64,000 bases of DNA, from NCBI GenBank assembly GCA_963755025.1, contig CAVWIH010000012.1, forward strand, positions 1-64,000, written 5' to 3'. Both the position numbers and the translations under genes were made by a program. The DNA comes from an uncultured Actinomycetes bacterium. Lineage in GTDB: Bacteria; Actinomycetota; Thermoleophilia; UBA2241. The notes beneath the pieces are model-generated. The model saw nothing but the letters and a program-made list of their open reading frames with translations, had not been told where the DNA came from and searched no databases. Shown here in pieces: positions 8,765 to 10,043 of the stretch (positions are counted from its first letter, which is position 1; the number at the start of each line of letters is the position of its first letter).

Positions 8765-10043
8765 TCAGGCGGGGACGATGAGCTCGATGGCCTTCTTGAC
8801 GACCGCTTCGACCGAGTCGCGGTCGCGCAGGCTGCAGGGCATGACCGGGATGTCGTCGGTCAGACCGAGGGTCTTGGCCACGGCGGCCGGGTTGAGCGAG
8901 TCTTCGTCCATGGAGACGTAGGTGGCCACGACGATGGGCATGGTCGCCCAGCTTGCGCACGAAACCCAGGTCGCGCACCGACGCCTTGAGGCTGTCGATC
9001 GAGTTGGCGTTGGCCAGCACGATGAACGCCGAGCTCTGCTCGGCGAAGCGCCGCCAGATCTCTTCGGGCGAGCTCACCGTGGCGGTGAGCACGAGGGCTC
9101 GTGCCGTCTTTGCCGCGCGGCATGTCGTAGTCGTCGGCGGTCGACGCCGTCGGGCGTGTAGGTCGCGGCGACCATCGGGATCTCGATCTCGCGATCGTCG
9201 ATCGAGCTCGACGCGAAGGTGCTCGGTGACGTTGCTCTCGACGAGCGTGCTGATGAAGACCTGGTTGTAGAGGTCGATCGGGCCGCGCACCACGATGGTG
9301 CGGCCCTCGCCGATCTCTTCGATGGCGGAGTCGCTCACGGTCAGCAGGCCGGTGCGGTGCAGGTCGTAGATGATCTTGGCGCCGTTGAAACGGTCGAGCC
9401 CGCACTCCTTGAGCACGGTGTTGATGTCGTGGCGCCCGTCGACCCAGCACACCACGCGCCACTGATCGGGCGCCAGCTTGACGCCCCCGTCCTCTTCGAC
9501 GATGTCGTTGTAGCGCAGGCGCGGCACGCGCTCGAGCGAACCCAGGGTGGCGAAGATGAGCTCCCACTCGTCGATGCGACGGCAGCCCTCCATGATGACC
9601 GACTCGACCTTCATCTCGACGTGGATGTCTTCGTCGGTCACGGTCTCGTCGGCTTCGAAGGTGAAGTCGCCGTCGGCCCAGCTGAAGAAGTTGAAGGTGA
9701 CGTCTTCGATCTGGTCGCGCACCGACTGTTCGAGCGTGGCGCGGTCGATGTAGCCGTGCGCCAGCAGGATGGAGCCGATACGGCCCTTGACCGACTTCTT
9801 CTTCTGCTCGGCGAGCGCGGCGCGCAGCTGCTTGCTCGTGACGTGGCCCGACTTCACCAGGCGTTCGCCGAGCGGCATGGTGCCCGGGTGGGCGGTGGCG
9901 AAGTAGATCTGGCCGTTGCGAAAGAAGATCTTGCCCGACTCGCCTTCGCGGGTGATCGACAGGGCGCCGGTCTTGGCGCTCATCTTGACCAGCTGAAAGA
10001 CGTTGGGAAGGTTGAACTCTTTAAGATTGCCCTGCAGGAGCAC
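8765..10043 (-). CDS. DUF4388 (PATAN-like) protein with MshEN-like segment and C-terminal degenerate small-GTPase (MglA/CvnD-like) domain; several frameshifts
   Basis: GAGGAG RBS before GTG at 10043; [24 protein letters not shown]...[18 protein letters not shown]...[21 protein letters not shown]. Tail reconstructed across frames ends MPIVVATY...[35 protein letters not shown]. Confidence 0.8.

Follow-up and report, generated by a model that had tools for sequence, protein, structure and literature searches.

The domain that Pfam lists as DUF4388 is the PATAN domain, and the closest described proteins that carry it are the PixE/PatA-type regulators of Synechocystis, in which an N-terminal PATAN domain contains a two-unit alpha-helical insert (bioRxiv 10.1101/2021.06.11.447907). 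The same preprint reports that Synechocystis PATAN domains bind to PilB1 and PilC and that cyanobacterial PATAN proteins localise to membranes and poles, judges a DNA-binding role for these proteins unlikely, describes MglA/MglB genes as frequent neighbours of PATAN genes, and contains the proposal of Han et al. that the PATAN insert mimics the N-terminus of PilB. Tandem 24-residue motifs with conserved Leu, Gly and Gln contacts are a feature of the MshEN domains of V. cholerae MshE and T. thermophilus PilF (PMC5013675, PMC11731258, PMC12002112). Within the MglA family, Groups 2/3, which include CvnD, often have a relaxed G4 motif ([NT]KxD) and have a G5 arginine (the 'DAR' motif) that is proposed to contact guanine (PMC4316618); that paper, in the part available to us, names PATAN neighbours for Groups 1 and 5 and describes no pilB cassette for Groups 2/3. 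Finally, Rubrobacter's RsiG-(c-di-GMP)-WhiG regulon has WhiG targets, predicted as TAAA-N15-GCCGATAA within 200 nt and with no more than two mismatches, that include pil genes and DGC/PDE genes (PMC8325347).

Here we describe a gene in a window of 64,000 nucleotides (the whole stretch of DNA that was analysed) from an uncultured actinobacterium of the class Thermoleophilia. Like the PixE/PatA-type regulators, its product begins with a PATAN domain that carries an insert, but it has no receiver domain and continues instead with a winged-helix-like domain and a fused, apparently dead G domain. This G domain resembles Groups 2/3 of the MglA family in its predicted fold, its collinearity with their GTPGQ-type members and its retained G5 arginine; it departs from them in the loss of G1-G4, in being fused rather than stand-alone, and in having no adjacent MglB, CvnA or CvnC. 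The insert shares with MshEN the tandem 24-residue motif and its Leu, Gly and Gln contacts; it differs in that Pro replaces the first Arg, position 11 of motif I is not hydrophobic, the linker has 7 residues, a C-terminal subdomain is absent and the whole is embedded in a PATAN domain. As in the Rubrobacter regulon, a sigma-28-type site precedes the gene, and WhiG, RsiG, and pil and GGDEF genes with such sites are encoded in the same genome; unlike in Rubrobacter, the motif is absent from members of one of the two families that carry the fusion, and the site here is predicted from sequence. Each domain thus belongs to a known family. We found no published description of their combination in the full-text papers searched, and the combination is confined to a narrow lineage with no cultured member among the records seen.

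Reading frame and domain layout

The gene lies on the minus strand at 8765..10043, from a GTG start codon at 10043 to a TGA stop codon at 8767-8765, and encodes 424 amino acids once four spurious bases are removed, its 1279 nt being equal to 425 codons plus 4 bases. Alignment to two close relatives places the extra single bases near 9202, 9141, 9099 and 8945. An independent short-read contig from run X1, which spans 8600-9488 (885 nt aligned, with 7 other letters), lacks exactly these four inserted bases, and runs X2 and X3, both of which cover 8945, lack the inserted base there. Among the matches listed (the best 120 of 361 found among 1833 candidates), the intact 424-residue proteins P0001-P0003 are 100% identical over residues 1-279. 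Because the X1 contig lacks the four bases and intact 424-residue proteins exist, we attribute the gene breaks to assembly errors, and protein analyses were therefore run on intact homologues. The earlier note had assumed a single gene after frameshift repair, which the X1 contig and the intact homologues confirm; after polishing, the gene remains undivided and a P-loop does not reappear. Since the G1 region precedes the first insertion, its degenerate form is not an artefact of the repair.

A 799-aa open reading frame (window 7659-10058) that joins the gene to hemB was rejected as an artefact of the inserted bases. Other frameshifts are present in the assembly, for example in a radical SAM gene (6443-7647) and in split GGDEF genes, so care is needed with open reading frame calls in this genome. 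RNA run X15 contains only pieces of relatives (90-95% alike) and gives no evidence for expression of the window gene. Upstream on the same strand, a gene for a 202-aa protein without a Pfam match (window 10304-10912, minus strand) recurs in 6 related loci examined.

The only Pfam domain recognised in the whole protein is DUF4388 (PF14332; residues 4-161, 9561..10034, minus strand), with a score of 126 bits against a cut-off of 25 and a match to model positions 1-122 of 122. This domain is matched in all 81 family members (81 sequences from the best 120 listed). It contains a tandem MshEN-type c-di-GMP motif at residues 57-111 (9711..9875, minus strand), which was identified by NF053729 and by matches in the PDB. 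The secondary structure of a predicted model places a winged-helix-like domain at about residues 168-237 (9333..9542, minus strand). On the same part of an unfused homologue, HTH_27/MarR_2 give weak matches below their cut-offs, and a single-sequence model of residues 1-243 has a pLDDT of 33.

The MglA-like domain and its G motifs

Scans with Pfam, NCBIfam and PDB profiles do not recognise the C-terminal domain as a GTPase, and its only sequence-profile match is to CENP-M (E 0.21, in 2 of 81 sequences). Since sequence-profile scans are blind to this G domain, a fold search and profile-profile comparison were required. An AlphaFold2 model of the intact homologue P0002 was built from an alignment of 81 of the best 120 listed homologues, with near-duplicates and fragments left out, and has a pLDDT of 85.5 and a pTM of 0.77. 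Residues 245-424 (8768..9311, minus strand) were compared with known structures using VIA-align and Foldseek, alongside hhalign for profiles. VIA-align ranks M. xanthus MglA (5ymx) first, with Z 16.6 and rmsd 3.0 over 160 aligned residues (the runner-up has Z 15.4), and Foldseek ranks MglA-GDP (3t1o) first with E 9e-7. The C-terminal domain of about 180 residues is thus predicted to adopt a small-GTPase fold with MglA as its best match, in agreement with what had been read from the layout of its sequence. An Atlas search with P0024 returned the family's own clusters alone. A 182-aa 'stand-alone' C-terminal domain in genome G062 was rejected, as it sits at a contig end.

Alignment to intact relatives shows which motifs have been replaced. 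The P-loop GPFxAGKTT of the relatives corresponds to GPIDxYNxV at the degenerate G1 (9255..9287, minus strand), where Tyr259-Asn260-Gln261 take the place of Gly-Lys-Thr and Asp257 is added; the third of these positions is Glu or Gln in the family. Replacement of Gly by Tyr, of Lys by Asn and of the Mg-binding Thr by Glu/Gln, and the extra Asp, are each expected from established P-loop chemistry to prevent phosphate binding. The G2 threonine is gone, the G3 equivalent (9060..9089, minus strand) lacks the Gly and Gln of TVPGQ/GTPGQ, and the G4 equivalent (8912..8926, minus strand) reads ATYVS, with no N/TKxD. At G5 (C-x-L-R; 8825..8836, minus strand) the Cys and the Arg of the 'DAR' motif are retained, and R405 is invariant in 28 diverse sequences. 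The loss of G1, G3 and G4 described in the earlier note is therefore upheld and includes G2.

The replacement residues have been conserved in turn. D257, Y259 and N260 are invariant in 81 of 81 sequences, the G1 equivalent x[GS][PSA][IT]DxYxxxF is found in 159 of 162 distinct homologues (the remaining 3 being unmatched), and a Walker A motif (GxxxxGK[TS]) after residue 200 occurs in none of these 162, so conservation of the degenerate P-loop, which had been put forward as a check, is confirmed. For 11 independent pairs drawn from 37 coding sequences, the dN/dS values (Nei-Gojobori) are 0.22 and 0.30 for the core parts of the G domain, 0.24 for PATAN and 0.23 for the winged-helix-like part, as against 0.86 for a variable loop. 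The low values in the core indicate that the G domain is being kept and is not decaying, and a pseudogene or decaying domain was rejected on the basis of conservation, dN/dS and the short-read contigs. Judged from these sequences, the replacement G1 motif is conserved and under purifying selection.

By its predicted fold and the conserved absence of G motifs, the domain would qualify as a class I pseudoGTPase that has probably lost nucleotide binding. The pG domains of p190RhoGAP and the dynein LIC belong to the same class, as does AAGAB. With AAGAB, the domain described here would share a G-protein fold without G motifs and an expected function as a protein-interaction module (PMC12490416); unlike AAGAB-type proteins, it is bacterial, would derive from an MglA-like GTPase with a traceable active ancestor and partner gene, and is known here from sequence and a model.

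Relatives in pilus operons and distribution of the fusion

To find the nearest intact relatives of the domain, 121 genomes of the phylum were searched with PF03029, which yielded 17 conservon-type GTPases and 11 other intact GTPGQ GTPases (L088, from an unpublished genome, and L083, which is broken, were left out). When 56 C-terminal domains were combined into a profile, it matched the 11 GTPGQ GTPases over 168 columns (P 99.0%, E 6e-18) and the 17 CvnD-type GTPases over 92 columns (P 97.4%, E 1e-11), and did not match the Group 1 MglA of the window's own genome (P 0.1%). The earlier note had assigned the domain a conservon/MglA layout. The likeness to GTPases stands, but according to these profiles the nearest intact relatives are neither CvnD nor the Myxococcus-type Group 1 MglA; they are the pilB-linked GTPases of the GTPGQ type.

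These GTPases belong to a cassette. They are encoded directly behind a gene for a protein that consists of PATAN, insert and winged helix with a long acidic linker, and the order is one to three roadblock genes, PATAN, GTPase, and pilB-pilT within two genes, in or beside mltG-aroE. In 14 of 16 loci from other classes, the gene immediately before the GTPase is a PATAN gene at threshold; one locus has a weaker PATAN match there and one is cut by a contig end. In 15 of the 16, pilB lies no more than two genes after the GTPase, the other ending at a contig end. In these loci of other actinobacterial classes (L121-L136) the cassette heads a pilB-pilT-pilC-pilin operon, and pilB is often preceded by a sigma-28-type site. 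No published description of a roadblock-PATAN-GTPase cassette at pilB was found in the full-text papers searched. Two genomes of a further family, f2 (L137:847-2259 and L138), have a PATAN-GTPase-roadblock cassette of another kind, in which the GTPGQ GTPase is intact and which has no linked pilB in the 3.5 kb seen.

In the pil loci of the class to which the window belongs, aroE abuts pilB and no cassette is present (5 of 5: the window's own genome, one more from family f1, two from f4 and one from f6). Full-length strong matches to a profile of the intact GTPase were found in 2 of 201 genomes of the class, neither of them a carrier of the fusion; in 30 carriers the match is to the fusion's own dead C-terminal domain, and no intact copy of the cassette GTPase was found in any of the 41 carriers. 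Residues 1-241 of the fusion match the cassette PATAN proteins (hhalign P 100%) and residues 236-422 match the cassette GTPases (hhalign P 98%). The fused N-terminal halves form a single clade (support 100/99). The GTPase trees, which were obtained by quick searches and have a long branch leading to the dead domain, resolve neither its exact donor nor whether it belongs inside the cassette clade or beside it (AU p 0.59), so the claim of origin rests on profile similarity and gene order. On these grounds it is likely that the fusion arose by the joining of two neighbouring pilus-operon genes.

A genuine fusion with an intact P-loop was not found among 97 matches in the best 7992 candidates scored (423-2000 aa). 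P0272 and P0284, which combine PF14332 and PF03029, were rejected as missing links: both are singletons in which frameshift-like junk lies between the domains or follows them, and they look like frameshift read-throughs of two adjacent cassette genes. The unfused PATAN-GTPase pair of genome G219, a stand-in for the window protein, was modelled as a complex with GTP and Mg. The prediction scores 0.53 against 0.00 for the best of 3 controls. Of 157 solved complexes, 116 reach the mark used, as do 2 of 215 mismatches; with scores of 0.60 or less, only 18 solved complexes and both mismatches do so. At least 50% of contacts agree between the runs and the partner pLDDT is at least 74. The model lends weak support to a PATAN-GTPase contact.

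The fusion is present in 41 of 201 genomes of the class and in two Thermoleophilia families: the window's own genome, 32 of 35 genomes of f1 and 8 of 35 of f4, with none in the 130 genomes of ten other families. It is absent from the other 27 f4 genomes and from 24 of 24 f6 genomes. In the phylum, 57 of 301 genomes (a count that includes one unpublished genome, G245) match at E 1e-30, and only the window's own genome and one f4 genome have matches that extend into the G domain, 55 ending by position 250. The fusion gene is single-copy. In f1 it precedes hemB, whose start is at 8639 in the window, with a sigma-70-like site of its own at 8717-8688; in most f4 loci it precedes an acyltransferase/ParA-CooC-like region. 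In 28 neighbourhoods (the window, L001-L008 and L046-L064), neither pil, mgl or roadblock genes adjoining the fusion nor a surrounding cvnA-cvnB-cvnC-cvnD locus was found, and PF03029 has no match in the window's own genome, which is 84% complete.

Proposed control by c-di-GMP and role in pilus function

A predicted sigma-28/WhiG-type promoter, TAAC-N15-GCCGATGA, lies 69 nt upstream of the start codon (10113..10139, minus strand). It is intergenic, within 200 nt of the gene and has two mismatches, as in the Rubrobacter predictions (PMC8325347), and the genome encodes RsiG and one FliA/WhiG above cut-off. A [GT]CCGAT core is found upstream in 23 of 28 f1 loci, and with the -35 T in 20 of 28, with spacers that vary; these 28 upstream regions are kin and not independent. 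The corresponding frequencies are 5.3% and 0.8% in shuffled controls, and 12 of 213 and 3 of 213 for other genes of the same loci. No sigma-28-type motif precedes the fusion gene in any of 8 f4 loci. Genome-wide, 11 intergenic sites with no more than two mismatches were found among about 3177 roughly called genes, and they include those of the window gene, a GGDEF gene, pilC (with a weak -10) and a pilin.

The link to pili that had been suggested for this protein is sustained by the cassette before pilB in other classes and by the sigma-28-type motif, and the genome-wide check located pilB-pilT-pilC-pilin, mglB-mglA and roadblock genes in the window's own genome. No flagellin was found in this genome (84% complete), and 33 GGDEF matches were, several of them split by frameshifts. 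Elsewhere in it, a sigma-28-type site with one mismatch lies inside the 3' part of aroE, about 180 nt before pilB (L156:11458-11484, contig C32); this site recurs in two relatives, making three genomes in total. A second PATAN protein with an MshEN-type insert is encoded directly upstream of a PAS-GGDEF gene (L065:5725-7403, contig C24), and a third is encoded on contig C11. An intact Group 1 mglA-mglB operon (L157:12907-15158, contig C7) faces a small PATAN gene, rsiG and an FHA gene. This is a Myxococcus-type polarity module in Gram-positive actinobacteria. No sigma-28 site was found upstream of mglB in 7 loci in which its start was recognised.

We consider it likely that the protein helps to control type IV pili in soil and peat actinobacteria. 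As a mechanism, we propose that this single-copy cytoplasmic protein would be an adaptor that responds to c-di-GMP and serves the motor of type IV pili. The ancestral PATAN protein would have been the binding partner of the neighbouring GTPase; the two genes would then have fused and left the pil locus, nucleotide binding by the G domain would have been lost, and this domain may now stay docked for good on its former partner, where it would offer a structural surface or one for docking. At low c-di-GMP, RsiG would release WhiG, which would transcribe the gene together with pil genes, and c-di-GMP bound at the insert may set the engagement of PilB/PilC by the PATAN domain, by analogy with cyanobacterial PATAN domains. 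GTP switching in these cells would fall to the intact Group 1 MglA-MglB pair, which is encoded separately. We give an even chance to the central proposal, that the protein is a pilus-motor adaptor belonging to the c-di-GMP regulon and that its former GTPase stays permanently docked, free of nucleotide. Points against it are the location of the fusion gene away from pil, mgl and roadblock genes in the 28 neighbourhoods, the unspecific co-occurrence with pilB and MglA, the missing promoter motif in f4 and the departures of motif I from the MshEN consensus. More tentatively, and with doubt outweighing belief, a GTP-switched roadblock-PATAN-GTPase module that headed the pilB operon of deep-branching actinobacteria may have been reduced, in one lineage, to one polypeptide whose dead G domain holds its former effector locked. 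Control of the motor would then have shifted from GTP to c-di-GMP at two levels, the promoter (by way of RsiG-WhiG) and the protein (by way of the insert).

The c-di-GMP step of this mechanism depends upon the insert. NF053729 scores 48.8 bits on P0002 against a cut-off of 38, and the insert also matches PDB entries for the N-terminal parts of PilF, PilB and MshE, so the two LG..L...G repeats that had been likened to MshEN are indeed a tandem motif of this type. Motif I begins with an invariant Pro and motif II with Arg, and a linker of 7 residues separates them. Across 81 sequences, little or no variation is seen at L58, G59, L73, L77, Q80, R88, G90, L104 and Q111. When contact positions are mapped from the MshE residues named in PMC5013675, the seven-plus-seven positions are kept in 81 f1-type sequences with the exception of the first Arg and the Asp41 equivalent. 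The published relaxed 24-residue motif occurs twice in 27, once in 110 and not at all in 18 of 155 sequences, and twice in 134 of 155 when position 11 is freed; in window-type proteins, motif II fits it and motif I misses at position 11 only. We regard c-di-GMP binding at the insert, predicted from these features, as likely.

The insert is also where the strongest competing explanation applies. If the protein were a scaffold of the pilus regulon blind to c-di-GMP, the insert would be structural or, as in the proposal of Han et al., a mimic of the PilB N-terminus, and c-di-GMP control would be wholly transcriptional through RsiG-WhiG. The departures of motif I at positions 1 and 11 fit such a scaffold, as do the degenerate or missing insert of some f4 members and its complete absence from the distant member P0167. 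Near-consensus motifs such as PilF GSPII-A can fail to bind (PMC12002112), which counts against binding by the insert. However, the contact positions are largely kept and the NF053729 score is above cut-off, Pro is permitted at position 1 of the relaxed motif (PMC5013675), and the first Arg of PilF can be replaced without loss (PMC11731258). We thus consider a scaffold of this kind unlikely, although it is the rival that we take most seriously.

A second possibility, also unlikely and placed after the first, is that the dead G domain attracts roadblock (MglB-type) proteins, as their decoy or platform, and in this way modulates the polarity switch of the intact Group 1 MglA-MglB pair, with no direct action on PilB. 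Both pilB and intact MglA are present in 41 of 41 carriers, most carriers have MglB and a second, orphan roadblock, the ancestral cassette contains roadblock genes, and in several f4 genomes the distance between mglB-mglA and pilB is about 8-13 kb. This co-occurrence of the fusion with pilB and MglA is unspecific, because, of the 201 genomes of the class, 162 have pilB homologues and 89 have intact MglA; that with roadblocks (116 of 201) is likewise unspecific. Roadblocks and MglA are equally common in f4 and f6 genomes without the fusion, and the roadblock genes of the window's own genome are on contigs C7 and C14, away from the fusion gene. Moreover, the domain has no profile likeness to Group 1 MglA, and both of its switch regions are remodelled.

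A non-canonical nucleotide or ligand site, as in a class II pseudo-GTPase or a rebuilt pocket formed by D257-x-Y259-N260, an acidic switch-I hairpin and the G5 Arg, would account for the strong conservation of the replacement residues and of R405, and the G5 Arg is the residue proposed to contact guanine in Groups 2/3 (PMC4316618), but G4 is gone too and the P-loop substitutions and added Asp are each expected to block phosphate binding, which makes such a site improbable. Least probable is a c-di-GMP-responsive transcription regulator that binds DNA through the winged-helix-like domain and possibly controls the adjacent heme genes, for although the gene precedes hemB in f1 and an unfused homologue has weak winged-helix Pfam matches, hemB has its own sigma-70-like site, f4 members are located elsewhere, and cyanobacterial PATAN proteins are found at membranes and poles with a DNA role judged unlikely (bioRxiv 10.1101/2021.06.11.447907).

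The proximity of PATAN genes to MglA/MglB genes has long been noticed, without a demonstrated contact between their products; for M. xanthus, the sources available to us contain no report of a test of deleting the two MglA-associated PATAN-domain genes. The fusion is a Rosetta-stone case, and a PATAN-GTPase contact is therefore testable with two small soluble proteins of the cassette. If such contact were true, PATAN-winged-helix proteins would be direct effectors of MglA-like GTPases. In the papers surveyed, most pseudoGTPases whose roles are known come from eukaryotes, and the domain described here would, if our reading is true, be a bacterial Ras-like pseudo-GTPase with a fully traceable history, its active ancestor and dead descendant forming a natural pair for studying how a GTP switch may become a scaffold. 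For the organisms themselves, the predicted promoter and its genomic context would extend the c-di-GMP/WhiG pilus regulon of Rubrobacter to abundant, uncultured Thermoleophilia of soil and peat.
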